Assembly (NCBI GenBank): GCA_964638715.1
Contig: CAZWZF010000008.1
Span: 92,109 to 156,108 of the forward strand
Length of the DNA stretch: 64,000 nt
Direction: 5' to 3'
Source of the DNA: an uncultured bacterium
GTDB lineage: Bacteria > Armatimonadota > Hebobacteria > CAIYQO01
Positions 37,083 through 61,493 of this stretch are shown one piece after another. The notes under the pieces are model-generated. The model worked only from the letters and a program-made list of their open reading frames with translations. It was not told the DNA's origin and ran no database searches. Position 1 is the first letter of the stretch. Each line of letters begins with the position of its first letter. The translations under genes were made by a program, and so were the position numbers.

Positions 37083-40000
37083 TCACTTCGGTCCCAGCGC
37101 GTTAACCACACACCGGAAACCTGTTGGTGTCCAGTCTCGCACATGTGGCGGATTAATAAACCTGGCGGCGGTACGACTTAATCTTTCATCATACAGGGAA
37201 CATCCGCCACGCAATACTTTGTGACTGCCAATTGCCGGACCGGTCGGATTTTTTGATGGTGATGATTTATAATATTCATAACCATACCAATCTGCTACCC
37301 ATTCCCATACGTTGCCGGCCATATCCATCACGCCATAAGGACTGGCCCCCTGCGGGTAACTTCCTACCGGACGGAAACCGGATGAAAACTTATACAAAGT
37401 CTCTTCCATGGATACACATTTTGTAGAATCCCATTTGTTGCCCCATGGATATTCACGACCATCAGTACCACGGGCAGCTTTTTCCCATTGTGCCTCGGTG
37501 GGTAACGCGGCGCCAACCGCTTTCGCGTAAGTATCGGCTTCATACCAACTCATCTGCACCGCATACGCACCTTCATCACCTTTGGGGTCAGCATACATTC
37601 CCTGTCCCCAAGTTGGAGTAAATGTTTTACCGGTTGCGTCGCAATATTTCTTGTATTGCGCGACTGTTACCGGATATTTATACATCCAGTAACCATCCAA
37701 ATAAATTTTTCGCTGTGGTCGTTCATCACCAGCACCTTTGCCATTGGGTGAACCACGCAGAAAATCACCCGCAGGTATCCAGATTAATTCCGCGCCATCC
37801 AATTCATTAACTGCCGTTGTTGTACTGGTAATTTTTATTTTAGGCGCAAATAACACTGCAGTCGTTTCAACAGTTGCGGTAGTAACCTGTTTTGCAACTG
37901 GAACAGTTTTGGCACTCAATACCTGAACCGGTAAATTTACTTCCGTCGCATCTTTTGCCGCAGAGGTGCCAATTAATGTTATCTGTAAATATGCTTTATC
38001 AACTACCGGTTTTAATTCGACAGCGTCCCAGCCATTAGCCGAAGTTGTAATAACCGCAGCAACACCATCACCACGGTCAAGTTGAATAACGATATCTCCA
38101 GTGGAGTTGGCAGTTATAGGAATATTGACCGGTTCCGCGTCAGAAACAGCAATAACATCATCAAACTTCTGGTCCATCGCATCCAAACCGGGTAATCTTT
38201 CTCCAGCTTTCATTCCTTTTATTCCGCCCGGTACAGCATATTGCAAGTCCAGCAACTTTGTGATGCCACCGCCGGTCACTGCGACTTTCGCAACCTTCGG
38301 GTTTGGCAACGCGAGCATCCATCGGGTAGTAAATCGGTTTGTTACAGCCAGACTGCCATTATATTTTCGATCAATCTGCATTCCAGTATCAGTAGTGCTT
38401 ACTACTCTATTCAGGTGATTTTTAGTATCAAATCCATAAAAAGGCTGGGAAAGGGTAAGGTCTGTTTCTAATTTATCTTTATTCGGATTTTGGAATTCAC
38501 TCCACACTGACGACCAGTCTTTATCAGAAATATTAGGGTATTTCAAATCATTTTTTGCTACATCTGCCGGCAGCCATATCATTGAACTAATTCTGGCAAA
38601 CTGGTCAAGATATCCGGCCTGTCCACCCTGAACCGCAAGTAATTCTTTCCCACTTTTTTTATCTATCGCGCTGGTGACTTGTCCTTTCAAATCAGGACAT
38701 ACCGCCACTGACATTGATTTTCCATCCAGTTCCACTACTGGTCCGCCGTTATTGGCAACATACCATGATATGGTGCGCAATACCCCGGCTTCACCGCCGC
38801 CATTCATGAAAGCGGCTTTTTTGGCACGGTCAAGACAACCAGGCACATTCGGGTCAGCACCGGCAACATACCATTTTTTATTATCTGCCGCATATTTCAC
38901 CATTCCCCAAGGATTACCGCTGTAAGACGCCGCATTTAGCGTAACCGCATCCAAAGAGCTTCCCCGCGCCTCTATCATATTGGCAAGCAAACGTTTATCT
39001 TCTTCTTTTTCTGCCGCTGCCAGTGCTTTATCCATTGCCACTGTCATTTTGGCTAATATAGTTGGTGAAAACATCTTCACGCGTGTTGTCGTGGTCCATC
39101 CGCTCCAGCGTACCGCACTGGGAACATGACCGCTGTCAGCATAGGCAGCCTGCGCAAGTTTCAGATACTCCCAAACATAAGGTGCTGCACCTTTACCATA
39201 ATTATCATCCAGGAACTGGCGAATAAGTTTATCAGCATCCTGGTCGGGGTTCCAGGCGAGTTTTAAATAAACCCATGAATACAGCCATTGCCAGTTATCA
39301 CTGCATAACTGCGGATTTGTGCCATAAATTCCGCATTCTTTCCAATATTTCATAATGTCGCTGAGGTAGAAAATCGCTGGCCATTCCGGTTGGTAAGGAA
39401 CCCAATGCCAGGTGGTTACCCGTCCGGGAGCGATTTTTGGCCATTCTTTCAGTGCTTTCGCGTAATCACGGTTTGCCGGGTTATTGGTAATCGGTCCTAC
39501 CTGGTCACCCGCCATATTCTGCGATCGCGCGCTTGATACCACATTAATCCACAGATTTTTATTGGGTTTAATAGTCTTTGGCGCATCAAGAGAGTCAAAA
39601 TATGCGAATGTGATTACCTGCTGGTCCGGGTCGGTCTTTTCTAAATCTTCCAACGCGCGGTTAAGCATCAGTATTAACGGTGCCGCCTCAGATTGTTCAT
39701 CATGCACTAACTTGCGGCAATTATCGCACATACACCCGGTAAAACCATCACCCTGGGCAGCAGGAATCGGCATTGCCGGATCAAATTTTGCCCCCATCTG
39801 TTTTTTTCTTATAGCAATCTGTTTTCGCAATGCATCCGCCAAGAATTTTGGCAAATCCGGATTTGTTCCGCATACACCCATACTCCATGGCGTCTCGCGC
39901 TGACCGGCTTTATTTAAAGGGTAAAAATCAGGATGTTCAGCAAACAAACCTTTTTCAGTAATATTTCCTTTGCCATCTTTCTTATCCTGTGGCGGCAATA

Positions 40001-40622
40001 AATCATAAAAATTATGTCCGGCGCCAAGATCACCGCTTACAGTATTGGCAGGATAACCCGCTCCACGATTCTGCAATATCCACGGGTAACTACCCATCCA
40101 GAAGATAAAACCGCGTTGAGCAAATGCAGGTTGCTGAAAATCATCAACATTTTTTATTGACAATGTCGTTTGTTTTGGCACTACTTCATGCCCCGGACCC
40201 CCGTATGACAATCCTTTCGCCTTAAAAGTGTAAAAACGACAGCCAAGATGATCTTCCAATAAACCCCATACCGCATATTGTATTCCAAGGTCTGATAAGG
40301 CCGAGAGAATTAATTTATCGCCATCAGTTCTGATACGATAGGCCTGTTTCCCCTTCGCGTCATCACTTGCACCGGGTAGTTTATCAACTTTTTCTATAAT
40401 GATAACTGCTTTATCCCGCAATTCGTCAGTCATCGATGCTGCCAATGGTAATTCAGCACCGGTAATCTGCTTCAGATATGACTGCAGATTTTTGGCAGGC
40501 TGCAAAAAACCATTGTGAACAATAGTCGCCTTAGTCACACCATTTTCAGCAAGCGTAATTGCCTGGGTGCTGATTACAAGGCAAAGTAACAGAAATACTA
40601 CCATCGCTTTACAAGTTGACAT
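37083..40622 (-). CDS. Large secreted DUF4838-like::FGE-sulfatase-domain fusion protein. AT-rich paralog of 1639..5244.
   Basis: Signal peptide MSTCKAMVVFLLLCLVISTQA. Collinear similarity to 1639..5244, including the C-terminal SUMF1-type motifs GNVWEWVADWY, RGGCSLYDERLSRTAAR and GFRCVVNALGP. LacI-type palindrome 18 nt upstream of the start. Confidence 0.8.
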   Translation of the reverse strand: MSTCKAMVVFLLLCLVISTQAITLAENGVTKATIVHNGFLQPAKNLQSYLKQITGAELPLAASMTDELRDKAVIIIEKVDKLPGASDDAKGKQAYRIRTDGDKLILSALSDLGIQYAVWGLLEDHLGCRFYTFKAKGLSYGGPGHEVVPKQTTLSIKNVDDFQQPAFAQRGFIFWMGSYPWILQNRGAGYPANTVSGDLGAGHNFYDLLPPQDKKDGKGNITEKGLFAEHPDFYPLNKAGQRETPWSMGVCGTNPDLPKFLADALRKQIAIRKKQMGAKFDPAMPIPAAQGDGFTGCMCDNCRKLVHDEQSEAAPLILMLNRALEDLEKTDPDQQVITFAYFDSLDAPKTIKPNKNLWINVVSSARSQNMAGDQVGPITNNPANRDYAKALKEWPKIAPGRVTTWHWVPYQPEWPAIFYLSDIMKYWKECGIYGTNPQLCSDNWQWLYSWVYLKLAWNPDQDADKLIRQFLDDNYGKGAAPYVWEYLKLAQAAYADSGHVPSAVRWSGWTTTTRVKMFSPTILAKMTVAMDKALAAAEKEEDKRLLANMIEARGSSLDAVTLNAASYSGNPWGMVKYAADNKKWYVAGADPNVPGCLDRAKKAAFMNGGGEAGVLRTISWYVANNGGPVVELDGKSMSVAVCPDLKGQVTSAIDKKSGKELLAVQGGQAGYLDQFARISSMIWLPADVAKNDLKYPNISDKDWSSVWSEFQNPNKDKLETDLTLSQPFYGFDTKNHLNRVVSTTDTGMQIDRKYNGSLAVTNRFTTRWMLALPNPKVAKVAVTGGGITKLLDLQYAVPGGIKGMKAGERLPGLDAMDQKFDDVIAVSDAEPVNIPITANSTGDIVIQLDRGDGVAAVITTSANGWDAVELKPVVDKAYLQITLIGTSAAKDATEVNLPVQVLSAKTVPVAKQVTTATVETTAVLFAPKIKITSTTTAVNELDGAELIWIPAGDFLRGSPNGKGAGDERPQRKIYLDGYWMYKYPVTVAQYKKYCDATGKTFTPTWGQGMYADPKGDEGAYAVQMSWYEADTYAKAVGAALPTEAQWEKAARGTDGREYPWGNKWDSTKCVSMEETLYKFSSGFRPVGSYPQGASPYGVMDMAGNVWEWVADWYGYEYYKSSPSKNPTGPAIGSHKVLRGGCSLYDERLSRTAARFINPPHVRDWTPTGFRCVVNALGPK

Positions 40623-40639: not shown

Positions 40640-40653
40640 TGTTAACGTTAACC
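40640..40653. promoter_or_regulatory. Candidate LacI-family operator TGTTAACGTTAACc (13/14 palindrome), 18 nt upstream of the 37083..40622 start.
   Basis: Sequence read directly. Central CG with TGTTAAC/GTTAACA half-sites fits the generic LacI/GalR operator TGnnAnCGnTnnCA. Confidence 0.55.
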
Positions 40654-40712: not shown

Positions 40713-42848
40713 TTATTTTAAAAATTTTATACGAAAACGGAATAATGCATCTTCGTCATACCACATCGGAAAGTTTGAACCCCACACATTATTATAAAGA
40801 TTAAAATGCATTCCACCAGATAAATCAGGCAGAGATTTATCAAAATGCAATAATCGCGGATTCCCTGGCGCCACCAATGGCACATCCAATGTTTCCAACA
40901 TCAATTCGCCACTAACTATGGGACATCGCAATCCTGATTGCACAGCATGCAATGTTCTGTTTCCACCTTCTATTACATCCAGCGGTGATATCAATTCTCC
41001 CATTTTATCCATCATCCAGCTTTGAGGTTGTGGCACACAAGGTACGAATGAATACCATAATGCTTCAGGAAAACGACATGCAGGTTTATCGAACCACTGC
41101 AATTTTATTTCTACTATTGGGTTCTCATTGGGAAAGGTATATGTAATATAAATTTCCCGCGGAGCACCATACTCGTCAGAGCACCATACAGGAAATTCTA
41201 CTTTTATTAATAATTCTGAGTCTTTATCAGTTTCTTTACATCCTGCCCAGGTCATCACAGGTTTTACCATACATGACTTTGCACCGTCTTCATTAATTCC
41301 CGGCTTGTTGAAATCATGTTGTGCCCAGGCGGAATTTGTCCACTCAGGTGTAAAATTCACATCCATATTAATCAGATATTCTTTCATAAATTGCGCGTAA
41401 TCATCCTCATTAAAAGTTTGATATCGCATTAATCCCAATGGATTGTTTATTCCGGCTAATTCTACAGCAGTCGCCTTATTAATGAATGAACTCAATGCCC
41501 CGGTTTCAGGATCAAGAGAAATTTTAAAATTAGCTGTATTAAATATTCCATCGCATTTCTGATATTTTTTTTGTTCTGGCAGTGTTGGAATTAACGAATC
41601 TAACTCTGCTATTGCTTCTGTTGACAATTCAGAATTAGATGCCAATGATTTTAATGCGTCAGATATATATTTTCGTTGTTCTACCCATGAATCTGAAAAC
41701 TTCTTGAACTTCGGCGTTTTTCTGGCAATTTCAAATTCTTCTTTACGATAACTTTTATCTTTATTAAACAACTGTCCGAACGGTAATGGTTCATCCGCCG
41801 GCAAATGCGTTTTTTCATCCATTCCCCAGGTGTGTTCCGGTATCAGCAAAATATTTCTACTGAATGCATGGTAAATCGGATCATCCCATGAAACTCGTTC
41901 ATTATGTTCCCATTCAGTCCGCAATCGGCAAAGTGAACGATAAGCCGCAACCTTTGCCGGGTCAGTACCTGCGCCATGTATCCAGGTATCACCTATTTCA
42001 CTATTTATCACCGGTAATCTGTCGCGAATATCTTCAATATTTTCAGCAAACGCATCCATTGTAGATGCCATTACCTGATGCCCGGGGAATTGTTCTTTTA
42101 AATAGTTATATTTTGCCAGTATTGCATCTGCGGTTGGCGGTCCGGCATTATCACCCTGGTGAGCAAATGCCAAGACATTTTTTCCTCCGGGAATAACCTG
42201 TACATCTCCGTAACCGCCGGTTTGATACATAACCACAACTTCATCACCACCCGGCGAACACCAGCGAAAAAGCGGCGGAACCTGTGGCGGTGAACATACC
42301 GGATTAACGCCGATATGCAAAAACTTAACACCGGCCTCGGCAAGATATGGAACCATTGCCCGGGTATGTCCAGGCACATCAGTCATCTTGACGGCAATTG
42401 TTTTATGCCCAAATCTTTTATCAAGAGTCTGCGATAACGACAGTCCAAATTTGAATAATGCCGGATCCATTAATTCGGTATGAGTAGTGAATGGCAGCGC
42501 GTGCCAAGTTATATCACCGGCAGCAATGGCAAATTCCAATTTTCTGCGATTTTTAGTATTTGCCTGCTCAAGATATTCATATATCAGCCATGAACCGGTG
42601 GTCCATACCAGCCTTTCTTCACCACCGCGTTGCCGCAATTCATTTGCTGTTTCAATAGCCTGGGGCAACAGCACATTAAAATATCTATCCACTACAGATT
42701 GTGCGCTGTCAGTAAATCCTACATCAAGATGTGATTTAAATATGATATGCACCACTGACTGCAAATTCGCTTGCATATCAGTTTTTTTATTTAATATCTT
42801 TATTGGTGTTGGACTAACGGTCTTAGTCATTTTTAATTTATCCTTCAT
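40713..42848 (-). CDS. Putative glycoside hydrolase of the GH38/GH57-like (polysaccharide-deacetylase-fold) type, no signal peptide.
   Basis: N-terminal IIFKSHLDVGFTD resembles the HSH-x-D-x-GW metal-binding start of GH38 N-domains. Long ORF in operon context. Weak family call. Confidence 0.4.
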   Translation of the reverse strand: MKDKLKMTKTVSPTPIKILNKKTDMQANLQSVVHIIFKSHLDVGFTDSAQSVVDRYFNVLLPQAIETANELRQRGGEERLVWTTGSWLIYEYLEQANTKNRRKLEFAIAAGDITWHALPFTTHTELMDPALFKFGLSLSQTLDKRFGHKTIAVKMTDVPGHTRAMVPYLAEAGVKFLHIGVNPVCSPPQVPPLFRWCSPGGDEVVVMYQTGGYGDVQVIPGGKNVLAFAHQGDNAGPPTADAILAKYNYLKEQFPGHQVMASTMDAFAENIEDIRDRLPVINSEIGDTWIHGAGTDPAKVAAYRSLCRLRTEWEHNERVSWDDPIYHAFSRNILLIPEHTWGMDEKTHLPADEPLPFGQLFNKDKSYRKEEFEIARKTPKFKKFSDSWVEQRKYISDALKSLASNSELSTEAIAELDSLIPTLPEQKKYQKCDGIFNTANFKISLDPETGALSSFINKATAVELAGINNPLGLMRYQTFNEDDYAQFMKEYLINMDVNFTPEWTNSAWAQHDFNKPGINEDGAKSCMVKPVMTWAGCKETDKDSELLIKVEFPVWCSDEYGAPREIYITYTFPNENPIVEIKLQWFDKPACRFPEALWYSFVPCVPQPQSWMMDKMGELISPLDVIEGGNRTLHAVQSGLRCPIVSGELMLETLDVPLVAPGNPRLLHFDKSLPDLSGGMHFNLYNNVWGSNFPMWYDEDALFRFRIKFLK

Positions 42849-42853
42849 CTTTC

Positions 42854-42881
42854 GTAGAGACGCATGGCCGTGCGTCTCTAC
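42854..42881. repeat. Hairpin repeat GTAGAGACGCA-TGGCCG-TGCGTCTCTAC (11-bp perfect arms) in the 29-nt gap between GH31 stop and next start.
   Basis: Read directly. The right arm contains the GH31 stop codon. Second copy at 45326-45353. Confidence 0.6.
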
Positions 42882-45292
42882 ATATTTAATAAAATTACCA
42901 CCTTGAACGGGTCACCGGATTTAATTTCCGGCAGGTGGAACTGGTAACGATTTTCAGTATCTATTTTTTTACAATTAATTTCAATATCACCATTTAAAAA
43001 TGCTGACAGCGGCAATTTGTCTAATGAAACATCAATAGTTATTTGTCGTATCCCACCTAATGGCTTTCCTTCAATTACCTTTCCGGCAATCTCAATTATG
43101 TTATTATTTTTACGCATATTGAATCGCGTTCTGCAAAAATCACCTTGCTTATAATCGGGCGAACGTCCATCATCTTCGTATAATTCGGCACATCCTTCTG
43201 CACCGGGATATACATCAAGTAACAGATGCTTAATATGGGCTGCATGAATATTGTCATCCGACGATTGCCGTGGGATAATGCTGCCTGCTTTTACATATAC
43301 CGGTACTTCAGACAATTCCACATTACGGGTTATTTCTTGACCGCCGGAGACAATCTTTGCCGTCTCAAACTCGTACCATTCCCCTTCGGGAAGATAAATG
43401 GTTCGTTCCTTATCCGTTGATAATACCGGCGCAACCAGCATATCAGGTCCAAAATAAAACTCGTCAAAACGATAACCTGCATTATTCTCTGGCTCCATCA
43501 GGTATAGACCGCGGGTGATGGGCATACCAGTGTCGTAACAGGTACGGGATGCAGTGTAAATATACGGCAGCAAACTATGGCGTATTCGCAACCATCGCCG
43601 GCATTCACCATTCAATTCAGTATCATAATCATAGGGTTTGCGACTGCCGGAACCTGGTGCGCAGTGAAAACGCATAATAGGGTTAAATACCCCGAATTGC
43701 AGCCAGCGTAGATATAACTCCGGTTTAATAATCTTTTCACCCGATCTATTAGTCGTTAACTGACTCGGAGCCAGGCAAAATCCACCCATATCATGACTGA
43801 TATTGGATACGCCTACCCCGCTGGCGCGGATATTGAACTCGCATTGCAACCGCAGCACATCAAAGTCGGACGTTGTATCGCCAGTGAAAAAGCCGCCATA
43901 ACGGTGCGAACCAAAACCACCATATCTCCCCAATAGCATCCCTCGCCGTCCATCACGTTCTGACTCTTCAAAGAAAGTCTTGTTTGTTACTAACTGTCCA
44001 TGTGTTGTGGTCAATTGCCCGCGCGAACCATCGTTCCACCAGTAATCCAATCCGTCATTAATTATGTGGGTGTGGCACACTTTGCGGAATGCGGTATTCT
44101 GTGCTTTATTGCAGATATCAACCTTCGCCATTCGCAGCGTTTTGCCATTATATTCGCGGGTATTTATCTCTACATCGGGTCCGGCTTGTTTTATATATTC
44201 ATCAAAATGACTGTCATCATCACGCACATCCAAAGGATGGTCGTTGAATGTGACATCAAGATTATATTTGCGGCAAAATGCGAAAAATCGCTGCGGGTCG
44301 GGTATTAATTCGGGGTTATATTCCCAATGCCCCCAACCTTCTTTGTGCCATTCCATGTCCATTACCAAAGTTGACAATGGGTAGCCATTAGCAGCAAAAT
44401 CATGTGCCATCTCAGTAATTTCATCCTCGCTGAAAGCGGGCCAACGAGAAAAAATTATGCCATAATCTTTATGAGGTAATACTGGAACCGGCCCGGACAG
44501 CAATCTAAAGTCCTGCAACGCTTGAAGGTAATTCTTGCCATACGCGAAAAAATACCAGTCCTGATAACCGGGTTTATCGCGTTCTATTGGAAAGTCGTCT
44601 TCATCCATTACCGCACCTTCAGAATCATTCAACAGATAATACCCGCTTCTGGATAAAACACCCGGACAAAACTTTCGTGATACTTTGTACCAGTTGAAGG
44701 TGCGCTCGGTATATTTGCCATCATTAAATTGCTGCTGCGCGTCACGCAACCAGTGACCACGACCAAAATTAGCAGGAGCATCTGGGTGCAAGTCTACATA
44801 CAACGGATCAATCTCGCACTGCAGCCATGCCGGCCAGGTAGTGCCGCCGGGATCTGGCGATTCCATTGTTGCGGTTTGCACACCATCTAATACACACGAC
44901 TCACCACCATATCTATCCAAACTGCGCAGCGTGCCACCGAGATTCTGATAATCCCGATCACCGGGACGCCATATCTGCATCAGTTTGCCGTCGTTCCATC
45001 GTAACTCCAGATTATTGCGGTTACACGGCTTATCATTATCAATTGTACGAATTTGCATCGCGCCAGTATCCAACACATCCCATTTACCATCGCGTGTAAT
45101 TGCAGTGAAAGCTACTGGTTGCTGCTGATTATAAGCGACCATGCTACGCCGGTCATCAAAAATGCCATCTGGTGAAAATTCTATTCTCACCAGTGTTGGG
45201 GAGAGGCATATAAAACGGCGATGACCGATAACCACCGCCGCTGAGTTCACGAAATTATTATCTTTTTTTACATCCGAATATGGAATTGTCAT
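42878..45292 (-). CDS. Glycoside hydrolase family 31 (alpha-glucosidase/alpha-xylosidase-like).
   Basis: LVMDMEWH matches the GH31 catalytic-nucleophile region (WiDMnE). Typical GH31 C-terminal beta-sandwich pattern (YLPEGEWYEF). The track start at 45337 is a TTG inside a hairpin repeat, so the start was moved to the ATG at 45292 (MTIPYSDVKK). Confidence 0.8.
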   Translation of the reverse strand: MTIPYSDVKKDNNFVNSAAVVIGHRRFICLSPTLVRIEFSPDGIFDDRRSMVAYNQQQPVAFTAITRDGKWDVLDTGAMQIRTIDNDKPCNRNNLELRWNDGKLMQIWRPGDRDYQNLGGTLRSLDRYGGESCVLDGVQTATMESPDPGGTTWPAWLQCEIDPLYVDLHPDAPANFGRGHWLRDAQQQFNDGKYTERTFNWYKVSRKFCPGVLSRSGYYLLNDSEGAVMDEDDFPIERDKPGYQDWYFFAYGKNYLQALQDFRLLSGPVPVLPHKDYGIIFSRWPAFSEDEITEMAHDFAANGYPLSTLVMDMEWHKEGWGHWEYNPELIPDPQRFFAFCRKYNLDVTFNDHPLDVRDDDSHFDEYIKQAGPDVEINTREYNGKTLRMAKVDICNKAQNTAFRKVCHTHIINDGLDYWWNDGSRGQLTTTHGQLVTNKTFFEESERDGRRGMLLGRYGGFGSHRYGGFFTGDTTSDFDVLRLQCEFNIRASGVGVSNISHDMGGFCLAPSQLTTNRSGEKIIKPELYLRWLQFGVFNPIMRFHCAPGSGSRKPYDYDTELNGECRRWLRIRHSLLPYIYTASRTCYDTGMPITRGLYLMEPENNAGYRFDEFYFGPDMLVAPVLSTDKERTIYLPEGEWYEFETAKIVSGGQEITRNVELSEVPVYVKAGSIIPRQSSDDNIHAAHIKHLLLDVYPGAEGCAELYEDDGRSPDYKQGDFCRTRFNMRKNNNIIEIAGKVIEGKPLGGIRQITIDVSLDKLPLSAFLNGDIEINCKKIDTENRYQFHLPEIKSGDPFKVVILLNM

Positions 45293-45325: not shown

Positions 45326-45353
45326 GTAGAGACGCAAAATCTTGCGTCTCTAC
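45326..45353. repeat. Second copy of the hairpin repeat, GTAGAGACGCA-AAATCT-TGCGTCTCTAC, upstream of the GH31 gene. A partial third right arm (CGTCTCTACAG) sits at 45388-45399.
   Basis: Read directly. Arms identical to the 42854 copy, spacer differs. Confidence 0.6.
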
Positions 45354-45393
45354 AGAACAGATATTATTTTTGACTATCGCAAAATAGACGTCT

Positions 45394-46353
45394 CTACAGT
45401 TCCGATTGAACAAACCTTACTTCTGCCAAGCGCATACTATTGTCGCCAAAGTTTGATGTTATTACCATTTTGACCCATTTTGCCTTTGTTGATCCGCCGG
45501 TAAATGGATAAAATTGCGCCCGCCATGTTGATTGCGTTTCATTTCTAAACTCAGCAGGTGCACCATTTACCGCTGTGTATGTTCCATTCAAGTTGGTTGT
45601 AGCATCAATTGATGATGTCAAGGTTATCCCTTTTACTGCCCGGTTTGGATAAGAAGTGCCTTCATAATAGTTCCAGATACAGATACCAGACAAATTATAA
45701 TTATCACCAAGATTAAATAAAATGTATTTATTTAACGCGCATTGCCATACTTTTGCTGTTAAGTAGCTATGGTCAGGCCAGGTTGATGGAGCTTGGTCAC
45801 CTGTATTCAACGGCTTGGTTAATCCTTCGCCATCAATAGCTAATAAAGGTGTCCCGGAGTCAGAATATGCAAATACCGGCTTAACTATAGTCCATTTGTA
45901 TGGATCACCCAATGAGCAATGACCATCAACAAAACTTTTGATTACTTTACCGCTATGGCGCGCATCAATATCATTATCTTTGCCATCCATTGTCAGCCAG
46001 GTTGCGCTGGTATCAGGTATAGTACCAACGGCCATATTTGAACATTTAACAGCATTGTAAATAAAGCCTGGCAATACAGTTCTGCCGGCAGACGGACAAA
46101 TTTTTATACCATCATCAACACTGATACTGGTCCAGAATGTTGTGGAAGATGGTAATATCTCCTGATGGTCCTGGCAATACATTTGTGCGGATACTGCTAT
46201 TTGCCTCTGGTTGCTCATACAGGTTGTTTGCCGCGCTTTTTCTCGTGCCCGGGCAAACACCGGGAACAGTATGGCGGCCAAAATGGCAATTATGGCAATC
46301 ACGACCAGCAGTTCAATAAGGGTAAAACCTTTTCGTGAATTAAATTTATACAT
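45394..46353 (-). CDS. Prepilin-type N-terminal cleavage/methylation domain protein (DUF1559 pseudopilin-like) with C-terminal discoidin/F5-8 type C (CBM32-like) domain.
   Basis: N-terminus [44 protein letters not shown] (class III signal/pilin motif G-F-T-L-I-E). DUF1559 H..DGH motif (VDGHC). C-terminus ...WVKMVITSNFGDNSMRLAEVRFV is discoidin-like. Confidence 0.8.
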   Translation of the reverse strand: MYKFNSRKGFTLIELLVVIAIIAILAAILFPVFARAREKARQTTCMSNQRQIAVSAQMYCQDHQEILPSSTTFWTSISVDDGIKICPSAGRTVLPGFIYNAVKCSNMAVGTIPDTSATWLTMDGKDNDIDARHSGKVIKSFVDGHCSLGDPYKWTIVKPVFAYSDSGTPLLAIDGEGLTKPLNTGDQAPSTWPDHSYLTAKVWQCALNKYILFNLGDNYNLSGICIWNYYEGTSYPNRAVKGITLTSSIDATTNLNGTYTAVNGAPAEFRNETQSTWRAQFYPFTGGSTKAKWVKMVITSNFGDNSMRLAEVRFVQSEL

Positions 46354-46389
46354 AAAATTTCCTCCTCAAAGAAATATGAACGATAATAA

Positions 46390-47403
46390 TTAAGGCGTGT
46401 AGACGAATCGAACTTCACCAAGCCCGGCACCACCACCCCAATGTGAATTGATATATATTTTTACCCATTTAGCTTTTGTAGCTTGTCCGCTAAATGTATA
46501 ATATTGTGCTTTCCACGGATTCGTTGTTTCATTGCCAAATTCAATAGGTGCTCCAGGAATTACAGCCCATACACCATCTGAACCATTTGTTGAATCTAAT
46601 GATGAACTGATAGTTACCGACCTGAGTGATCGGTTTGGCCATGAGGAATTTTCATAATAATTCCAGATAGTGATACCGGTAAGATTGTATGTACCGCCCA
46701 GATAATAAACTATCCAATTTCCACTACTCGACGGCCACCAATAATTTTCATTACCTCCAGAGCCGGAATTGGTTTGAGTTGGCCAGGTTAAAGGTATTGA
46801 ATCTCCGGTGCTTAATGCTTTCGATAATCCAATGCCGTCAGTAGTAGCAGCAAATGAAGAACCTCGTGTACCTGCGGCAGGACCACTGGTTGCCACACAA
46901 GTCGGCTGAATAATATAGTATTGAAATGGTTTCGATGCCGCACAATGACCGTCAACATAGCTAAGTACCAGATTTCCACTGTGACGCGGGTCCATAGCGT
47001 CATTTTTTCCATCGCAGGTCAACCATACAGCTGACGCGTCCGGTATTTTTAACGGGTCGCCGATGGCGGTACCTGAACATATAGCAGCATTATAAACATA
47101 TCCGGGCAGGACATCCCTGCCTGCTGTCGGGCATATCTTCACCCCATCATCAACTTTTATATCATTCCAGAAAGTTGCTGATAAAGGCAGCGTTTCGTCA
47201 TGGTCCTGCGCGAACATCTGAACCGATGCAGATATTTGCCGCTGATTACTGGTACAGGTAGTCTGCCGTGCTTTCTCCCGCGCCCGGGCAAATACCGGGA
47301 ACAATATCGCGGCCAAAATGGCAATAATGGCAATCACAACCAGAAGTTCAATCAGCGTAAATCCTGATTTTCGTTTGCCACATTTGGAATAGTGATGATA
47401 CAT
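46390..47403 (-). CDS. DUF1559 pseudopilin-like protein with C-terminal discoidin (CBM32-like) domain. Tandem paralog.
   Basis: [44 protein letters not shown] and ...WVKIYINSHWGGGAGLGEVRFV. Perfect TGTTAACGTTAACA palindrome 29 nt upstream of the ATG. Confidence 0.8.
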   Translation of the reverse strand: MYHHYSKCGKRKSGFTLIELLVVIAIIAILAAILFPVFARAREKARQTTCTSNQRQISASVQMFAQDHDETLPLSATFWNDIKVDDGVKICPTAGRDVLPGYVYNAAICSGTAIGDPLKIPDASAVWLTCDGKNDAMDPRHSGNLVLSYVDGHCAASKPFQYYIIQPTCVATSGPAAGTRGSSFAATTDGIGLSKALSTGDSIPLTWPTQTNSGSGGNENYWWPSSSGNWIVYYLGGTYNLTGITIWNYYENSSWPNRSLRSVTISSSLDSTNGSDGVWAVIPGAPIEFGNETTNPWKAQYYTFSGQATKAKWVKIYINSHWGGGAGLGEVRFVYTP

Positions 47404-47431
47404 AATAAATACCCCCTTAATAAAAATATTT

Positions 47432-47445
47432 TGTTAACGTTAACA
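47432..47445. promoter_or_regulatory. Candidate LacI-family operator TGTTAACGTTAACA (perfect 14-nt palindrome), 29 nt upstream of the 46390..47403 start.
   Basis: Read directly. Followed (minus sense) by AAGGGGGT Shine-Dalgarno and ATG. Confidence 0.6.
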
Positions 47446-47587
47446 GAATATTGCTAATATTAATTATACCACTGTGTTTGTATGGTGTAAATAGGAATTT
47501 AAAAGAATTTAAAAATAAAAAATCGGGGTGGCTTGCACACCTTAATAGGCAATAGAGCCACCCCTAAATAATTGTATTCGATTCAGA

Positions 47588-48730
47588 TTATTGCAGAATT
47601 CCCCATTTTTTCTTCAGGTATTCATATATGATATTGCTATCAGATGTTGATAATGCAGGAGAGAAACACAATACTTCTGAAACATCACCTGTATAATAAT
47701 CACCACCTTGCATTCCTCGTTTGCCAACACTAAATCCATAGATTGAATAATTGTTGGTAGTAGGAATGCTGCTAAAAACGCAGACACCAGCACCTGGGCC
47801 TGCCTGAATAGCATCTTTTGTTAACTGTTTTGGTGTCAGATAAAAACCACCTGTATTTTCATAATCAGAATAATAAGTTCCGCCATTTAATCCACCGGCA
47901 CCGACAATACGACCCATTTGAGTTGCGTTAGGACTGTTTGATACTGTAAATACACTCCACTTTGCTGACTGGGTTGCACCCACTGCACGAAAATCTACTT
48001 GCATACCACAATTAGTAACACCAGAAAATGATATTGTCGGTTTGCCATTCATCCCTGTTGCTGACAATATCGGCGAAATAGTAGCAGGAGTCAAATCACG
48101 TGCTTTACCAGACTGGTCTTTCCATAAAGTAACCGCACCAGTTGTTGCATTTGCTACAACACCCATATCTGCCATTACCCAAAATTGCAAATTATTCTTT
48201 GATATCGGACATGGTACAAGGTCAAATGAACTGCCTGCCTCGGAATGACCATCTACATAGCTGGCGACAGCCTTGCTGCTATGCCGATTAGTGTCAATGT
48301 CAGTTACAGAGTTTAATATATTTACACCACCCGCGCTATCTGCAGTCATTAGCACTTTTGCTGGGTTATCAATATCACTTGTTACCCGGTCTGACAGCCA
48401 ACTATTATAACCATATACAGAAATAGAGTTATCACCACTTTTAGAAGCAGACGGACATTCCCAAGATTTGCCGGAAATGCCATTGCTGCCGCCTAATGAA
48501 GTTTTCCATGTGCCGCTATTAGGCAATCGCTGTTCGTGGTCCTGCGCATACATAGTCATAGCTATCGCTAATTGCCTCTGGTTGCTGGTACATACCGTCT
48601 GTCGGGATTTCTCACGCGCCTTGGCGAATACCGGGAATAATATCGCGGCCAAAATGGCAATTATGGCAATCACGACCAGAAGTTCTATCAGGGTAAAACC
48701 CTTTCCTTCTGTTTTGTTTAACGTTATCAT
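47588..48730 (-). CDS. DUF1559 pseudopilin-like protein with C-terminal LamG/ConA-like lectin domain. Tandem paralog.
   Basis: [44 protein letters not shown] and C-terminal ...[30 protein letters not shown] (LamG-like ending). Confidence 0.8.
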
Positions 48731-48753
48731 TATCAGTCTCCTCTTAATTTATT

Positions 48754-48800
48754 GTACCAGATGGTACGGTCAGTAATCAATTATCGCAGTTTGCGATAAT
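48754..48800. promoter_or_regulatory. Two short inverted repeats, GTACCA-GA-TGGTAC and ATTATCGCA-GTT-TGCGATAAT, in the 74-nt spacer between DUF1559 genes 4 and 3.
   Basis: Read directly. Could be an internal terminator/attenuator or an operator within the array. Confidence 0.3.
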
Positions 48801-48804
48801 CATG

Positions 48805-49950
48805 TTAAAGTGCGTATTTCGCCTTTAAATATGCCATTACTTTATCAATATCGCTTTGAGACATATCATCGTGATAACACAATATTTCACAAACTTGCAT
48901 TATAGGACTTTTATCAGGATTTTCCCATCCAAGTGTAAGAGGACTAACAACACTGACAGTACGAAAACGTCCAACTCCAAATAGTGATGTTTTTCTGGTT
49001 GGTGTGATTTTTACTGTTGCTGCATTAAAAGCTAAAGGGAATGGACCTGTTGTATCTGTCCAACTAATTGAAGTGCCATTTGCGACATCTGGTGCACAGC
49101 CTTTTAAAATAGTGCCAGTCTGACATTTATCTGTCATGTTGTATACTGTAAAGCATGTAAAAGTAGATATAGAAAGTGGTGTTGCCATTAGACTGTTTGT
49201 TCCCGCCCCTGAATTGTTTTGAATAGTTGTAAATGCGGAATAACCATTTAAGGCACTGGGAGTAACAGTAGCACCGTTTCCGGCAGGATAAAGATCATTT
49301 TTATAACCAGATTCATCAGACCATTTTTTCAAAATACTACTACCACCAGAGGTAATATTCTCCGGCATCAACCAGAGTACCAGATGTCCAGATACCGGCG
49401 GAAGGCGTAACTTTAGTGTATTTGATGTGCCAACAACAACGTGGCCATCTAATGCTGACATGATGGCTTTACCCGAATGTCTTTCTGCTATTAATACCTG
49501 GTTATAGATACATCCAGGAACTTGATATGATGAATTAGTGGTTTGTACCAGAGAATCGCCGGTTAGTAATATTCCCGACGGGTCATCTATTTCGCCTATC
49601 GATGCTGGTTGACCGGTGGATGTTTTACCCAGAAACTGGTTGTAACCATATTCCGGTTTACCGGCACTACCCTCGTCATTCGTGGTCGGACAATCAAATA
49701 TTTTCGGGTCCAATCCGGTTAGCGCAAGCGTCCAACCCTCGGCGGGCGGCAATGTTTCTTCATGATCCTGTGCATACATCATCATAGATGCTGCCAATTG
49801 TTTTTGGCTGTTAGTGCATGTGGTCTGATTAGCCTTTTCTTTTGCCCTGGCAAACACCGGGAAAAGTATCGCCGCTAAAACAGCAATAATGGCAACTACA
49901 ACTAATAGCTCTATCAGTGTAAAACCATGCGAATGAGCATTATTTTTCAT
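48805..49950 (-). CDS. DUF1559 pseudopilin-like protein with C-terminal LamG/ConA-like domain. Tandem paralog, first of the array.
   Basis: [38 protein letters not shown]...VCEILCYHDDMSQSDIDKVMAYLKAKY. TGTTAACGTTAACA palindrome 26 nt upstream of the ATG. Confidence 0.8.
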   Translation of the reverse strand: MKNNAHSHGFTLIELLVVVAIIAVLAAILFPVFARAKEKANQTTCTNSQKQLAASMMMYAQDHEETLPPAEGWTLALTGLDPKIFDCPTTNDEGSAGKPEYGYNQFLGKTSTGQPASIGEIDDPSGILLTGDSLVQTTNSSYQVPGCIYNQVLIAERHSGKAIMSALDGHVVVGTSNTLKLRLPPVSGHLVLWLMPENITSGGSSILKKWSDESGYKNDLYPAGNGATVTPSALNGYSAFTTIQNNSGAGTNSLMATPLSISTFTCFTVYNMTDKCQTGTILKGCAPDVANGTSISWTDTTGPFPLAFNAATVKITPTRKTSLFGVGRFRTVSVVSPLTLGWENPDKSPIMQVCEILCYHDDMSQSDIDKVMAYLKAKYAL

Positions 49951-49975
49951 AATCCCCCCCTTGTAAAAATAAAAT

Positions 49976-49989
49976 TGTTAACGTTAACA
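49976..49989. promoter_or_regulatory. Candidate LacI-family operator TGTTAACGTTAACA (perfect), 26 nt upstream of the first DUF1559 gene (48805..49950).
   Basis: Read directly. Identical to the 47432 site. Confidence 0.6.
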
Positions 49990-50081: not shown

Positions 50082-51290
50082 TTATATTATATTTTTATCT
50101 CTATTAAACTTTTTGGCTGGTCCGGTTGAGTTCCGCGGAATAAAGGATGTAGGGAGAGTAATTCTTTGTATTTCTTTGTTATGTTCAATTATCTGACGAA
50201 TCAGCATGCGGGTGGCTTCGCGGCCAACATCTGCTAATGGCAGGTTGGTAGTGGTGACATTTATCCCTTTCACCGGGTCAAGTACCGGAAAACTGTCATC
50301 ATGCCCCACTAAACTGATATCTTCCGGCACGCTAATTCCCTGTTGTTTAAGGTCATTATATATCATTTGTGCCATATAATCATGATGGGTAAAAACTGCG
50401 GTAATTTGTGGATTGGTAATTAGGAATTTATTAAATGCAGTCATACTGGCAATGGGATAATCCCAATCCCATGGACAGGCGTACAAAGCAGAATCCGCGT
50501 CGATGCCGGCATCCATTAGCGCTTTGCCATATCCTGCCAACCGTTGCTGGTAACAATAATATTGTGATTGCTGCTCTGGGAAATGCAGAAAATGCCGGTG
50601 ACCGAGTTCTATCAAATGCTGCATTGCCGCGTAAGCGGAAGACGCGTCATCGGTTAATATCGCAGAACATCCATCCGTAGGTTCAATAATTGTAACGATA
50701 GGCCGGTCAAAAAAGTTGGACTCAGCACGCAGCATATTAACGATATACGCTTGTTCATGTGGTTTTGCCTGCAGCAATGCACCGTCTATATCACCATGGC
50801 AAAATACAGCAGGCAAAGATTCAATCATGTCATAAGGAAACAACTCTTCATCTGTTTTACCTGGCCATATTAACGATTCTATCAACTCAGTTACAGGTTC
50901 CTCTTCTGAATGAGGATAACTGACATAATTAGTATGAACGGAATATCTTTTCAACACCGCAACTGTCATTATACTGTCAAAAATCGGACCATAATAAGCT
51001 GATGCCGGATATCGGGTAAACAATGGCGGAAAAAACAACCCGATGGTATGATTTAACGCGGTAATGCCATGTCGGCGAAGTACCATCTGCCGCGCCATTT
51101 GATTTCGAGCCGGGTCATATCCAAGTCTTTTAGCCACTGCCAGTATCTTCTCACGTGTCTTAGCGGCAACATAACTGCTGCCATTCAACGCCCGTGAAGC
51201 AGTCATCACACTTACGCCGCATTCCTCAGCAACGCTATGCAGATTAACCTGTGAATCCTGAACTTTTTGTTTTTGAGTCGACTTGGCCAT
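50082..51290 (-). CDS. LacI-family transcriptional regulator.
   Basis: N-terminal HTH VNLHSVAEECGVSVMTASRALNGSSYVAAKTREKILAVAKRLGY, then a periplasmic-binding-protein-like sugar-binding domain. An imperfect copy of the palindrome lies 18 nt upstream of its ATG. Confidence 0.85.
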   Translation of the reverse strand: MAKSTQKQKVQDSQVNLHSVAEECGVSVMTASRALNGSSYVAAKTREKILAVAKRLGYDPARNQMARQMVLRRHGITALNHTIGLFFPPLFTRYPASAYYGPIFDSIMTVAVLKRYSVHTNYVSYPHSEEEPVTELIESLIWPGKTDEELFPYDMIESLPAVFCHGDIDGALLQAKPHEQAYIVNMLRAESNFFDRPIVTIIEPTDGCSAILTDDASSAYAAMQHLIELGHRHFLHFPEQQSQYYCYQQRLAGYGKALMDAGIDADSALYACPWDWDYPIASMTAFNKFLITNPQITAVFTHHDYMAQMIYNDLKQQGISVPEDISLVGHDDSFPVLDPVKGINVTTTNLPLADVGREATRMLIRQIIEHNKEIQRITLPTSFIPRNSTGPAKKFNRDKNII

Positions 51291-51307: not shown

Positions 51308-51321
51308 TGTTAACGTTATTA
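51308..51321. promoter_or_regulatory. Imperfect copy TGTTAACGTTAtta upstream of the LacI-family gene itself (autoregulation candidate).
   Basis: 12/14 match to the palindrome, 18 nt upstream of the LacI ATG at 51290. Confidence 0.45.
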
Positions 51322-52435: not shown

Positions 52436-53839
52436 TTATTTTCTAACTGTTAGTTCTTCAAATGCAGGTTCAACATCTCTATCAATTTCAAGTTGCTTAA
52501 TTAATAGTTTTGCATCAAGCAACTTGGGTGAAACATCAGCATTTATACTTAGCGCCGCCGCCGTCCCGGCCGCTTGTCCTGTAGCCATACATGTTTGTTG
52601 AATACGCAGGCTTGATTCGGCAATATGTTCTGCGGAAATACATCTGCCTGCAACCAGAAGATTATCAACATTAATTGGAATTAAACTGCCATATCGAATA
52701 TCAAAATAATCTCCAGTCTTAAATCTTTCATGACGTATTTTATAACTTTCAGATTCCCTATCAACCGCAGGTGCTGTATAACTGTCAGCTGGCCAAATAT
52801 CAATATCCCATGAGCTTCGTGCCACCCCATCTGAATATTTATTAAATTCAACTGCGTCTTTTTCAGTTGCCGTGGCTAATCCATGAATCCGACGCGAAGA
52901 ACGCAAACCAATATGTGAAGAAGTATCAACAAGATAGGAATTTTCACATCCCGGCACATAATTCTTATAATAATCTGCTACCTGCCATGCCTGTTCGCGT
53001 CCTTCACGTTCTGCACGGGTAAAATCAAATGGATCCAGCGGATTCACTTTTAACACGCGACTTGTCACCAGCAGTAATTCATTTCTATATGACGGCATTT
53101 GCCACATCCACCATTGAGCATAACCTTTGACACGACCCGTTGTAATTACAGGTGTGGTATATTTACCGCTTTTCATTGCAGCCTGAAATCCATCTTCTAT
53201 CTGCTGTGCAAACTCAGGAGTGTTGAAATTTTCCGGCTTAATCGCGTTGCCAATTCGCAGAACTTTTGTGCATGCCATCGCCCATGGATTTTTCCCATCT
53301 CCCTGATCCCAAGGAACTCTGGCATAATTACATACTATCGCGTCTCCGGTAGCGTCAATCACCTGCTTAGCGGATATAAAACCAGTTCCCGCCTTTGTTT
53401 CAACAGTAATTCCAATGATAGTATTATTTTCTACTATCGCTCCGGAGCAATACGCATGATGCAGGATATCAGCACCTGCCTCTGTTAACAGGTCATCCCA
53501 TACATACTTTACGACTTCCGGGTCAACGATACCCCGAATTTGTCCACTGCCTATACCATCAAGTTTTTCAGAAATCCCGCCGCGTTTTTTCAAACCACGC
53601 GCATATTCATGCCAGATACCTTGAAAATCCACACCATTAGTGCTGAGTACAACACATACAAGCTGTGATACGGTGGCGCCGCCCAGATAGCCGTCTTTTT
53701 CGATAATCAGCGTTTTTGCGCCAAGCCTTGCTGATGCTATTGCTGCCGCACACCCCGCCGGCCCGCCGCCGCAGACGACGACATCATATTCACCGAGTAC
53801 GGGGATATCACGCGCGGGTTCTTGAATGGTAGTTTTCAT
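52436..53839 (-). CDS. FAD-dependent oxidoreductase (PF12831-like), AT-rich paralog.
   Basis: IPVLGEYDVVVCGGGPAGCAAAIASARLGAKTLIIEKDGYLGG. The track start at 53878 overlaps the upstream paralog. The internal ATG (MKTTIQEP) at 53839 abuts the upstream stop. Confidence 0.8.
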   Translation of the reverse strand: MKTTIQEPARDIPVLGEYDVVVCGGGPAGCAAAIASARLGAKTLIIEKDGYLGGATVSQLVCVVLSTNGVDFQGIWHEYARGLKKRGGISEKLDGIGSGQIRGIVDPEVVKYVWDDLLTEAGADILHHAYCSGAIVENNTIIGITVETKAGTGFISAKQVIDATGDAIVCNYARVPWDQGDGKNPWAMACTKVLRIGNAIKPENFNTPEFAQQIEDGFQAAMKSGKYTTPVITTGRVKGYAQWWMWQMPSYRNELLLVTSRVLKVNPLDPFDFTRAEREGREQAWQVADYYKNYVPGCENSYLVDTSSHIGLRSSRRIHGLATATEKDAVEFNKYSDGVARSSWDIDIWPADSYTAPAVDRESESYKIRHERFKTGDYFDIRYGSLIPINVDNLLVAGRCISAEHIAESSLRIQQTCMATGQAAGTAAALSINADVSPKLLDAKLLIKQLEIDRDVEPAFEELTVRK

Positions 53840-55272: not shown

Positions 55273-55295
55273 ATTGTTCCTCTTTCATTATTCTT

Positions 55296-59184: not shown

Positions 59185-59185
59185 C

Positions 59186-59935
59186 TTACCATTCTCCCTT
59201 TTTACCAAAGTTTTCTTTAGCTGCTTTGTTAAACTCAGCGCCTGCGGCATTAATTCTGTTTAATATTTCTTCAACAGTGCATCCTGCGGCACCACGTGCT
59301 GCCGGAATTACTGTATTGCATTCGTTGCTGTCCATAAACTTTGCCGCTTCCAATAATCCGGATTCGTCTTCATGTGGAATAACCAGAAATCCATGTTTAT
59401 CTGCATGAATAAGTTGTCCTGGTTTCACTGTTCTGCCAAAAACTTCCACTTCGCAGTTCCAATGTACCGGACATGAAAAAGAATGACCTACGCATAACCT
59501 GCGCGCAATTGCTTTAAATCCGGCGTTATTCATCTCGTCGAGATCCCGGATAGCTCCATCGGTAATAGTACCAACACAACCCAAGGCGCGGTGAATATTA
59601 CTGTTTACTTCACCCCAGAAAGCACCAATTACGTTTGGCTTGTCCATATCTTGAACAACTACAATCTTTGGTCCCGGTATGCTGGCAATATATGTGCGAT
59701 ATTCACTCCAGGCATTGGGATTGTCATGCGGATGCTTCGGATTGCTTGGCTCGAATTGCACCGTCGCCGCGTAGCCGACCATCGGTCCCATTTGTGGCAT
59801 AAAGTCGCGACATTCCTCGATATTAAAACCTTCTTTAGAAATATCGTGACTGGTTATTTGTTCCCAACCATTATAGATGGTCGGGGTATTCCAGCGTTTT
59901 AGCTGGAGAAGTTCTGCATGGGTTAACATAATCAA
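59186..59935 (-). CDS. RraA-like protein (RraA / 4-hydroxy-4-methyl-2-oxoglutarate aldolase / oxaloacetate-decarboxylase fold family).
   Basis: VVVVQDMDKPNVIGAFWGEVNSNIHRALGCVGTITDGAIRDLDEM, the characteristic G-x-x-x-DG-x-x-RD region of RraA-family proteins. Lower GC than its neighbours. Confidence 0.7.
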   Translation of the reverse strand: MIMLTHAELLQLKRWNTPTIYNGWEQITSHDISKEGFNIEECRDFMPQMGPMVGYAATVQFEPSNPKHPHDNPNAWSEYRTYIASIPGPKIVVVQDMDKPNVIGAFWGEVNSNIHRALGCVGTITDGAIRDLDEMNNAGFKAIARRLCVGHSFSCPVHWNCEVEVFGRTVKPGQLIHADKHGFLVIPHEDESGLLEAAKFMDSNECNTVIPAARGAAGCTVEEILNRINAAGAEFNKAAKENFGKKGEW

Positions 59936-61008: not shown

Positions 61009-61018
61009 GCTTCGCTCC

Positions 61019-61471: not shown

Positions 61472-61493
61472 CTTTTGGTAAATCCTTTCAATA

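Follow-up and report, generated by a model that had tools for sequence, protein, structure and literature searches.

The stretch of DNA analysed here (64 kb of contig CAZWZF010000008.1, from an uncultured lake bacterium of the Armatimonadota; hereafter "the window") harbors four tandem genes for pilin-like proteins that end in carbohydrate-binding-type modules, next to a gene for a LacI-family regulator and inside a glycan-degradation locus. The four open reading frames (ORFs), labelled P1 to P4, occupy exactly the positions proposed in an initial annotation of this DNA and are all on the minus strand: P1 at 45394..46353 (319 amino acids, aa), P2 at 46390..47403 (337 aa), P3 at 47588..48730 (380 aa) and P4 at 48805..49950 (381 aa), the order of transcription being P4, P3, P2, P1. 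P1 and P2 are paralogues with a CBM32/discoidin C-terminal module (CBM, carbohydrate-binding module; core at residues ~223-336 in P2), and P3 and P4 carry a ConA/LamG-like module (residues ~181-380 in P3). The proteins are already deposited at NCBI as MEI6518558-61, with P2 annotated as a discoidin domain-containing protein.

Pilin modules and C-terminal binding modules

All four proteins match the Pfam family N_methyl (PF07963; E 1e-7 to 1e-10) and score 32-36 bits against the NCBIfam model TIGR02532, whose cut-off is 16.3. Motif scanning identified class III leaders of 9-14 residues with a terminal glycine (MKNNAHSHG, preceding FTLIE, in P4) and the mature N-terminus FTLIELLVV(I/V)AIIA, with Glu5 present in 4/4. 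These data confirm that each gene encodes a prepilin-peptidase class III leader and pilin motif, as initially annotated. After the N_methyl motif comes a conserved segment, PVFA(R/K)AREKAR...C..N..Q, and a regular-expression scan located an H-x9-DG motif at the close of each pilin module (residues 133, 141, 150 and 158 in P1, P2, P3 and P4, respectively). Full-length homologues were aligned in two sets, A1 (54 sequences; P3/P4, with P4 aligning over its full length) and A2 (32 sequences; P2/P1). The residues of the H-x9-DG motif are invariant or nearly so in both (H150, D160 and G161 in A1; H141, D151 and G152 in A2). A pair of cysteines in the pilin module is invariant as well (C47/C92 in A1, C50/C91 in A2), a pattern that fits an exported protein. 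Homologues bear the name "prepilin-type processing-associated H-X9-DG protein" at JGI; the NCBIfam model TIGR04294 gave no match at E <= 0.1 in P1-P4.

The body of these modules is less typical than first proposed. PF07596 (DUF1559, SBP_bac_10) scores 27.5 bits in P1, 23.6 in P2, 32.2 in P3 and 16.0 in P4, the last value lying below the gathering cut-off of 23.3, and the matches span model positions 2-52 of 268 only. Since just ~50 of the 268 positions are matched, the modules (139-164 residues) should be regarded as short DUF1559-like pilin modules and not as full DUF1559 bodies. Pairwise comparison shows the paralogues to be 51-72% identical in their pilin modules and 21-44% in their C-termini, the closest pair, P1 and P2, reaching 72% in the former and 42-44% in the latter (E 4e-46 at 42%). 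The GspG equivalog TIGR01710 is matched at 34-40 bits (88.85 required) over model positions 1-61 of 134 only. An interpretation of the array as a HIJK-type set of minor pilins for a pilus tip was considered and rejected: 4/4 genes are paralogues, 4/4 have Glu5, relatives hold 1-3 such genes per locus, and P1-P4 fall well short of the cut-offs for GspH, I, J and K.

AlphaFold models derived from A1 and A2 predict a pilin fold with a long alpha1 helix (residues 14-64 in P3, 17-67 in P2) followed by a four-stranded sheet, with a predicted local-distance difference test (pLDDT) value of 82-95. The model of P2 (mean pLDDT 84) comprises the 50-residue alpha1 helix, the four-stranded sheet, a low-confidence linker and a beta-sandwich; that of P3 (mean pLDDT 77) is confident over the pilin module and poor at residues ~250-330. 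The two domains are separate, with confidence dipping at the linker (~170-180 in P3, ~173-222 in P2). An N-terminal pilin module, a short linker and a domain not specific to type IV filaments are the defining attributes of modular pilins, and all are found here.

In P1 and P2, the discoidin/CBM32-like assignment is borne out by fold and by homologues. The Pfam family F5_F8_type_C (PF00754) itself scores 26.6 bits in P2 and 16.2 bits in P1, both under the gathering cut-off of 28.2, but it is found in 28/32 of the A2 homologues at E <= 0.01 (best 3e-20). The predicted structure has the discoidin beta-sandwich fold of CBM32-type modules, and its structural matches include neuropilin, factor V/VIII, SUN domains and the SusE-like protein 7m1b. 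For P3 and P4, Laminin_G_3 (PF13385) gave no match at E <= 0.1 in Pfam; however, the family is found in 20/54 of the A1 homologues (best 2.7e-10) and the predicted fold is a ConA-like jelly roll. A Foldseek search with the P3 model ranked PilC of Streptococcus sanguinis second (E 2.7e-5), and the A1 sequence profile retrieved the lectin region of PilC (E 5.6e-4). The C-termini of P3 and P4 are homologous to each other (24% identity, E 2e-9). Judging from the models, the fold assignments of P1-P4 are right, those of P3 and P4 being based on predicted structure and homologues and not on a direct match to a hidden Markov model. The nearest structural matches of the C-terminal modules are CBMs and lectins; carbohydrate binding is the role predicted for them.

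The P3 module occurs widely. A search of 1.84 billion representatives with the isolated module (residues 176-380) retrieved 3523 relatives, headed by giant proteins (1000-6700 aa) in which it is repeated in tandem up to 17 times. The copies are often separated by Fn3-like linkers and share the signature LWL.AD...W.DQSG...GDIAE...L....R..V..YL..KY. A 969-aa Laminin_G_3 protein is also encoded in the window; similarity between it and the P3 module was looked for and not found.

Operators, promoters and transcription units

The gene adjoining the array (50082..51290, minus strand) encodes a LacI-family regulator, with a LacI helix-turn-helix (HTH) domain (PF00356, E 2e-14) and a Peripla_BP_3 domain (PF13377, E 3e-27), as anticipated by the initial annotation. 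The latter also reported a perfect LacI-type palindrome; this sequence, TGTTAACGTTAACA, proved to be present twice. One copy, O1 (49976..49989), lies 15 bp downstream of the -10 element of a promoter-like site for P4 (50004..50032, minus strand; TTGACA-17-TGnTATTAT). The other, O2 (47432..47445), lies 18 bp downstream of the -10 element of a similar site for P2 (47463..47491, minus strand; TTTACA-17-TGnTATAAT). These two strong sites, both with an extended -10 TG and 11/12 consensus matches, rank above all other sigma-70-like sites in the region. Thus, the exact palindromes are placed where a repressor would block transcription. O2 is exact in three related loci (L088, L089 and L213; L numbers denote related or compared loci and contigs), where the -35 and -10 elements of P2, an AAGGGGG ribosome-binding site and the 16-mer TCTGTTAACGTTAACA are also invariant, and the remaining intergenic DNA diverges. 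A palindrome of 14-16 bp with a central CG, situated at or just downstream of promoters and conserved in relatives, has the attributes expected of an operator.

Allowing for up to two mismatches, the window contains 5 copies of TGTTAACGTTAACA (0.11 expected), including the two exact ones. O3 (40640..40653; one mismatch) lies just upstream of the ribosome-binding site of a gene for a DUF4838 and FGE-sulfatase-domain protein. A fourth copy (51308..51321), consisting of a AACGTTAACA half and a degenerate half with two mismatches, overlaps the -10 element of lacI and is kept in L088 and L213; from its position, it is probably an autoregulation site. The fifth, TATTAACGTTACCA (25434-25447; two mismatches), falls within the predicted signal-peptide codons of a 1869-aa ORF that follows a gene for a polysaccharide lyase of family 8 (PL8); it may be a chance occurrence or a weak internal operator and is treated as doubtful.

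An intrinsic terminator was found after P3 (47516..47564, minus strand), composed of a GC-rich hairpin (GGGGUGGCU...AGCCACCCC) and a U-run (-23.9 kcal/mol, z -3.6). Its presence divides the array into two transcription units, each with its own promoter and operator: P4-P3, opened by P4, and a second unit that is opened by P2 and continues through P1 into the GH31 gene (GH, glycoside hydrolase) and onward, with the gene for a DUF5054 protein as a further member.

The 16-mer TCTGTTAACGTTAACA was found as an exact copy immediately upstream of LacI-family genes in at least six unrelated metagenome contigs (L122, L150, L154, L164, L176 and L185), which span a G+C content of 0.35 to 0.53; chance would account for ~0.2 such occurrences by a rough estimate. 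This recurrence argues that TCTGTTAACGTTAACA is a genuine LacI-family operator type. Among the matches listed in the metagenome search, none came from the source lineage and none revealed further members of the regulon. It appears that a single operator sequence is reused by distant LacI-family autoregulators. Taken together with the gene order, the data lead us to infer that the LacI protein of the window binds TGTTAACGTTAACA and that a sugar releases it.

A separate pair of near-identical, perfect hairpins, GTAGAGACGC-N8-GCGTCTCTAC, flanks the GH31 gene (42854-42881 and 45326-45353), with a partial third copy at 45388-45397. They occupy the P1/GH31 intergenic region and the one between GH31 and the next gene, encoding a DUF5054 protein; no U-run follows them, and they may be REP-like (repetitive extragenic palindromic) or serve mRNA processing or stability.

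Gene context in the window and in relatives

The initial annotation considered the 5' segments of the four genes near-identical and a substrate for gene conversion or copy-number change. In fact, the segments are only 70-83% identical over 139 nt and 69-78% over 180 nt. Within the 180-nt coding segments, 32-60% of conserved codons show synonymous differences, and no exact match extends beyond 35 nt. Recent gene conversion among them is thus rejected. The part of the claim that concerns copy number and rearrangement among strains did find support. In L088 and L089, the order is lacI-[operator]-P2-P1-GH31, with P4-P3 absent. In L213 (JGI 3300044987; same sample as L088), lacI is followed by an operator, P4' and P3', a second operator, a mosaic pilin, a third operator and a gene fragment, beside an IS66 transposase. 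The mosaic pilin (within 4942-7956) combines the promoter, operator, leader and first ~70 codons of P2 with a body and a C-terminal domain of unrelated sequence. Of P2, the fragment retains only 91 aa from the 5' end, preceded by a third promoter-operator copy. As read from these sequences, the recombining unit is the whole promoter-operator-leader cassette.

Homologues of these pilins are abundant (at least 8000 in each full-length search). In relatives, the same pilin module is joined to Laminin_G_3, F5_F8_type_C, PA14, PKD, FGE-sulfatase and other domains. Full-length relatives of P3 are numerous, at 31-39% identity, and some are from metagenome-assembled genomes (MAGs) of Armatimonadota. 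The attribution to the PVC (Planctomycetes-Verrucomicrobia-Chlamydiae) superphylum is unproven: the nearest named homologues of the pilins are from Armatimonadota, and that of a gene in the flank is from Planctomycetota. The flank gene encodes a heparinase-like protein, 63% identical to its nearest named homologue in Planctomycetota and 49% to one in Armatimonadota, and its named matches also include other affiliations.

Analysis of gene neighborhoods uncovered a recurrent arrangement. In 8/10 places, the window included, a regulator gene of the LacI, GntR-Peripla_BP or AraC type lies directly upstream of, or divergent from, the pilin gene, and in most of the eight the pilin visibly heads a carbohydrate-catabolic operon. 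LacI genes are directly upstream in the window, in L088/L089, at the second pilin of L091 and in two further contigs; GntR-Peripla_BP genes are directly upstream in L087 and L092, and AraC genes are divergent in L211 and L212. In L087, an Armatimonadota MAG, the GntR-Peripla_BP regulator is followed by two pilin-LamG genes and then by GH36 genes. L213, which also has the LacI layout, was not counted, and there is no regulator gene adjacent to the queried pilin of L091. No adjacent regulator is present at L090 and L085; the L085 pilin is embedded in a separate sulfatase/heparinase II-III operon. For comparison, a LacI-type gene was found within 6 kb at 3/80 generic DUF1559-like pilin loci of species-representative genomes (these loci came from a genome-contig search with the P3-family alignment, in which N-terminal helix patterns alone drove the matches). 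This low frequency indicates that the regulator link is a property of the lectin-pilin subfamily. Other palindromes lie between the GntR-Peripla_BP regulator and the pilin-lectin gene, GGTAACA...TGTTACC and ATTGGTTA-N9-TAACCAAT in L087 (9900-9965) and GATACACATATATATATGTATC in L092 (7953-7975), and on this account the design "regulator, operator, lectin-pilin" may be general. The layout of sugar regulator, lectin-pilin and catabolic operon seems not to have been described in the literature.

The window as a whole is one long, mostly co-directional glycan-catabolic region, and the pilins do lie inside it, as initially proposed, the array heading a cluster for sulfated-glycan degradation. It encodes six sulfatases, a chondroitinase-ABC-like PL8 lyase, a heparinase II/III-like protein, a beta-helix protein, a GH29 fucosidase, the GH31 and DUF5054 proteins and three DUF4838 (GH20-like) proteins; there are also five FAD_oxidored and four URO-D-like paralogues. 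Immediately downstream of the array on the minus strand are the GH31 gene (42878..45292), co-transcribed downstream of P1, and the DUF5054 gene (40713..42830), the products of which have no signal peptide. Next comes the DUF4838 (GH20-like) and FGE-sulfatase-domain gene behind O3 (37083..40622, minus strand), whose product has one. More generally, most sulfatases, the PL8 lyase, GH31, DUF5054, the heparinase-like protein and the FAD oxidoreductases are without signal peptide, and predicted signal peptides occur only in the three DUF4838 proteins, the 969-aa and 1869-aa proteins and a sulfatase with a Tat (twin-arginine translocation) signal (18408-19865).

The five FAD_oxidored (PF12831) paralogues are located at 33234-34544 and, for four of them, within 52436-59250; the four URO-D-like paralogues are scattered in the cluster, and an RraA-like gene and a DUF386 gene lie at 59186-61543. 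These families recur beside pilin-lectin genes in the relatives L001, L091, L211 and L212. A fifth modular pilin, of 508 aa with two F5_F8_type_C domains, is encoded on the same 170-kb contig, ~50 kb away (L085 10001-11527).

A block of low G+C content (0.39-0.51) extends from ~20000 to 53850, with flanks at 0.51-0.65. Its right boundary falls between two overlapping FAD_oxidored paralogues, one of low G+C (52436-53878), the other of high (53836-55272). Paralogues of the DUF4838 and FGE-sulfatase type are found in both compositions (37083-40622 and 1639-5244). A chimeric assembly behind the step at ~53.8 kb was dismissed, as independent assemblies (L002 and L004) span the junction. The entire LacI regulon, the four pilins among it, thus has the appearance of an island that came from a relative of lower G+C content.

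A proposed role in glycan capture and its place among known systems

The protein architecture, the predicted folds, the layout and conservation of operators and promoters and the recurrent gene context fit together in a model that we consider fairly probable, namely that P1-P4 are LacI-repressed, substrate-induced lectin-pilins, that a type IV filament machine with genes outside the window processes and presents them, and that they bind the glycan degraded by the locus. Each protein consists of a prepilin-type leader, a small DUF1559/H-x9-DG pilin module, a short linker and a carbohydrate-binding-type beta-sandwich. The adjacent LacI-family repressor probably silences the pilins and the downstream enzymes at TGTTAACGTTAACA, and a sugar derived from the target glycan would release it. 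The pilins would then enter the inner membrane and lose their leader by cleavage behind the glycine; most likely, a type IV filament machine encoded elsewhere takes them up, so that the substrate-specific binding modules might be displayed on a pilus or pseudopilus, where they could hold, and perhaps pull in, the sulfated glycan. Repression and induction, leader cleavage, incorporation into a filament and glycan specificity are all predictions of this model.

Several points weigh against it. Domain scans of the ORFs revealed no machinery genes for a type IV filament or a type II secretion system (T2SS) in the 64-kb window, and no gene for a prepilin peptidase, assembly ATPase, platform protein or secretin lies within it. 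The operator and the repressor are paired by adjacency and motif type only. The regulator link holds for the lectin-pilin subfamily, not for the whole DUF1559-like family. The P3-type module is a repeat of giant proteins, and its binding to carbohydrate is therefore not guaranteed. Finally, modules of 170-215 residues combined with Glu5 would fit a position at the tip, along the filament or anchored in the membrane alike, and do not by themselves say which.

The absence of filament machinery is one of the arguments for a rather unlikely alternative, in which P1-P4 are membrane-anchored or bindosome-like binding proteins instead of subunits of a filament. Their class III leader would serve only to tether a glycan-binding module to the outside of the inner membrane or to a short, bindosome-like assembly, where it would retain imported oligosaccharides for a transporter in the manner of the Sulfolobus sugar-binding proteins, which have class III signal peptides and are assembled by the Bas system (PMC3047682). 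Besides this archaeal precedent, one may invoke the Pfam name of the family, SBP_bac_10, and the lack of signal peptides in most enzymes of the cluster, which implies that the substrate must cross the inner membrane. Relatives, moreover, have dozens of paralogues (79 PulG-like genes in Fimbriimonas, an Armatimonadota member; PMC4072686), a number more typical of binding proteins. Yet the C-terminal modules have CBM/lectin folds and not those of periplasmic solute-binding proteins, no transporter gene, ABC or other, was found in 64 kb (nor any multi-spanning ORF of at least 150 aa), and all four proteins retain Glu5 and the full alpha1 helix that mediates the packing of filament subunits. The same folds are at issue if P1-P4 are taken as adhesion pilins for non-carbohydrate ligands or for the surface polymers of other cells, serving attachment or aggregation and not substrate capture. 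Discoidin and LamG folds do bind proteins or lipids elsewhere (as the matches to neuropilin, factor V/VIII and SUN domains illustrate), and the P3-type module is repeated up to 17 times in giant, surface-protein-like polypeptides. We nonetheless deem such a role very unlikely, given that the closest structural matches are CBMs and lectins and that, across many lineages, transcription of the pilin genes is tightly coupled to that of glycan-catabolic genes, with sugar-type regulators in control.

One could also imagine that the genes specify specialised T2SS pseudopilins, co-induced with the locus so as to adapt the secretion piston to the export of the few enzymes that the locus secretes; candidate cargo would be the DUF4838 proteins, the 969-aa LamG protein and the 1869-aa protein. 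Indeed, several large exported proteins are encoded in the same co-directional cluster, the N-terminal ~60 residues of the pilins score best against GspG, ComGC and PilA models, and some homologues are named "type II secretion system protein" at NCBI. The GspG scores, however, are those of the alpha1 region only and far from the cut-off (34-40 bits versus 88.85), lectin or CBM modules have no known role in the recognition of T2SS cargo, and in relatives the pilins head operons of cytoplasmic catabolic enzymes only. This proposal strikes us as the most improbable of those considered.

The model of induced lectin-pilins can be carried further, into a plug-in system: from each substrate-specific catabolic operon would come a separate lectin-tipped pilin, to be fitted to a single retractile type IV machine common to all, a speculation that we regard as unlikely; we rate just as low the related idea that this machine might reel bound polysaccharide into the cell, by analogy with competence pili and DNA. 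Such a system would explain the absence of a transporter in 64 kb, the lack of signal peptides in most of the sulfatases, lyases and glycosidases, and the existence of an expanded pilin family that recombines as promoter-operator-leader cassettes. If real, it would give the large DUF1559/H-X9-DG family a function; in Planctomycetota, Verrucomicrobiota, Lentisphaerota and Armatimonadota, few uncharacterised families have expanded as much as these pilin-like proteins. The array also bears on how these bacteria, devoid of SusC/D, seize and import complex sulfated glycans. That a CBM/lectin subfamily heads sugar-regulated operons in several lineages turns a vague pseudopilin into a hypothesis that can be tested in vitro, and the window offers a candidate operator-repressor pair together with natural cassette variants for comparison. 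Overall, the feature is real and its anatomy had been correctly read; its regulation appears well supported at the sequence level, and the functional model as a whole is plausible but unproven.

Modular pilins were defined by Pelicic's group (Raynaud et al. 2021), with more than 1200 examples in 264 architectures; N_methyl combined with PF13385 is one of the 15 most frequent (PMC8179133). One precedent is PilC of S. sanguinis, a minor pilin with a lectin module; it binds glycans and is predicted to be located at the tip of the pilus (PMC9934059). PilC (PDB 7oa7/7oa8) shares with the proteins of the window a class III signal peptide with Glu5, a small pilin module, a short linker and a module of the ConA-like lectin/glucanase superfamily. 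It differs by an additional Ig-like module, by the location of its gene, which lies within the pil machinery locus of a monoderm, and by binding host sialylated glycans for adhesion, whereas the pilins of the window have a DUF1559/H-x9-DG pilin module, are encoded away from any machinery and head sugar-regulated catabolic operons. Furthermore, there are four paralogues in the window, two of them with CBM32 in place of ConA-like modules. DUF1559 is barely mentioned in the literature and nothing relevant was found on H-X9-DG. The proteins so designated in Planctomycetota, Verrucomicrobiota, Lentisphaerota and Armatimonadota resemble P1-P4 in the N_methyl motif, the PVFA(R/K)AREKAR segment and the H-x9-DG motif; the pilin module of the window is shorter, however (~140-165 residues versus ~270), and an extra binding module is attached to it.

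Filaments have been connected with glycan use before. Mucin use by Akkermansia has been linked to MUL2, a locus for a type IV-like pilus, which is proposed to mediate attachment to glycans rich in fucose throughout the Akkermansiaceae (PMC13174399); in Planctomycetes, gold-labelled dextran binds pili-like fibres (PMC5394234). A study of fucoidan-degrading Planctomycetota contributes, as far as relevant here, only the up-regulation of T2SS. The MUL2 locus of Akkermansia muciniphila (Amuc_1099-1102) and the Planctomycetes fibres embody the same concept, a type IV-like filament that attaches to or takes up complex, fucose-rich or high-molecular-weight glycans in bacteria without SusC/D, but they are defined by machinery genes (PilM-like protein, archaeal-type pilin) or by microscopy and not by lectin-fused pilins under LacI control; their likeness to the window is one of concept. 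The bindosome of Sulfolobus solfataricus likewise combines sugar-related binding proteins, a pilin-type signal peptide and type IV-like assembly. Its components, however, are archaeal solute-binding proteins of ABC transporters, unlike the CBM/lectin folds of the window, near which neither transporter nor Bas-like genes are found. As to the SusD/SusE-type surface glycan-binding proteins of Bacteroidota (the initial annotation likened the array to SusD-like binding), the parallel is one of function only, non-catalytic binding proteins being co-regulated with degradative enzymes; the pilins of the window have no SusD homology, lipoprotein signal or SusC-type transporter and are anchored by a pilin helix. 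Lectin-bearing modular pilins and pilus-assisted glycan foraging were thus already known, and the present analysis does not establish a new kind of system: the proteins of the window are sugar-regulated members of the known class of modular pilins, arranged as paralogous cassettes.

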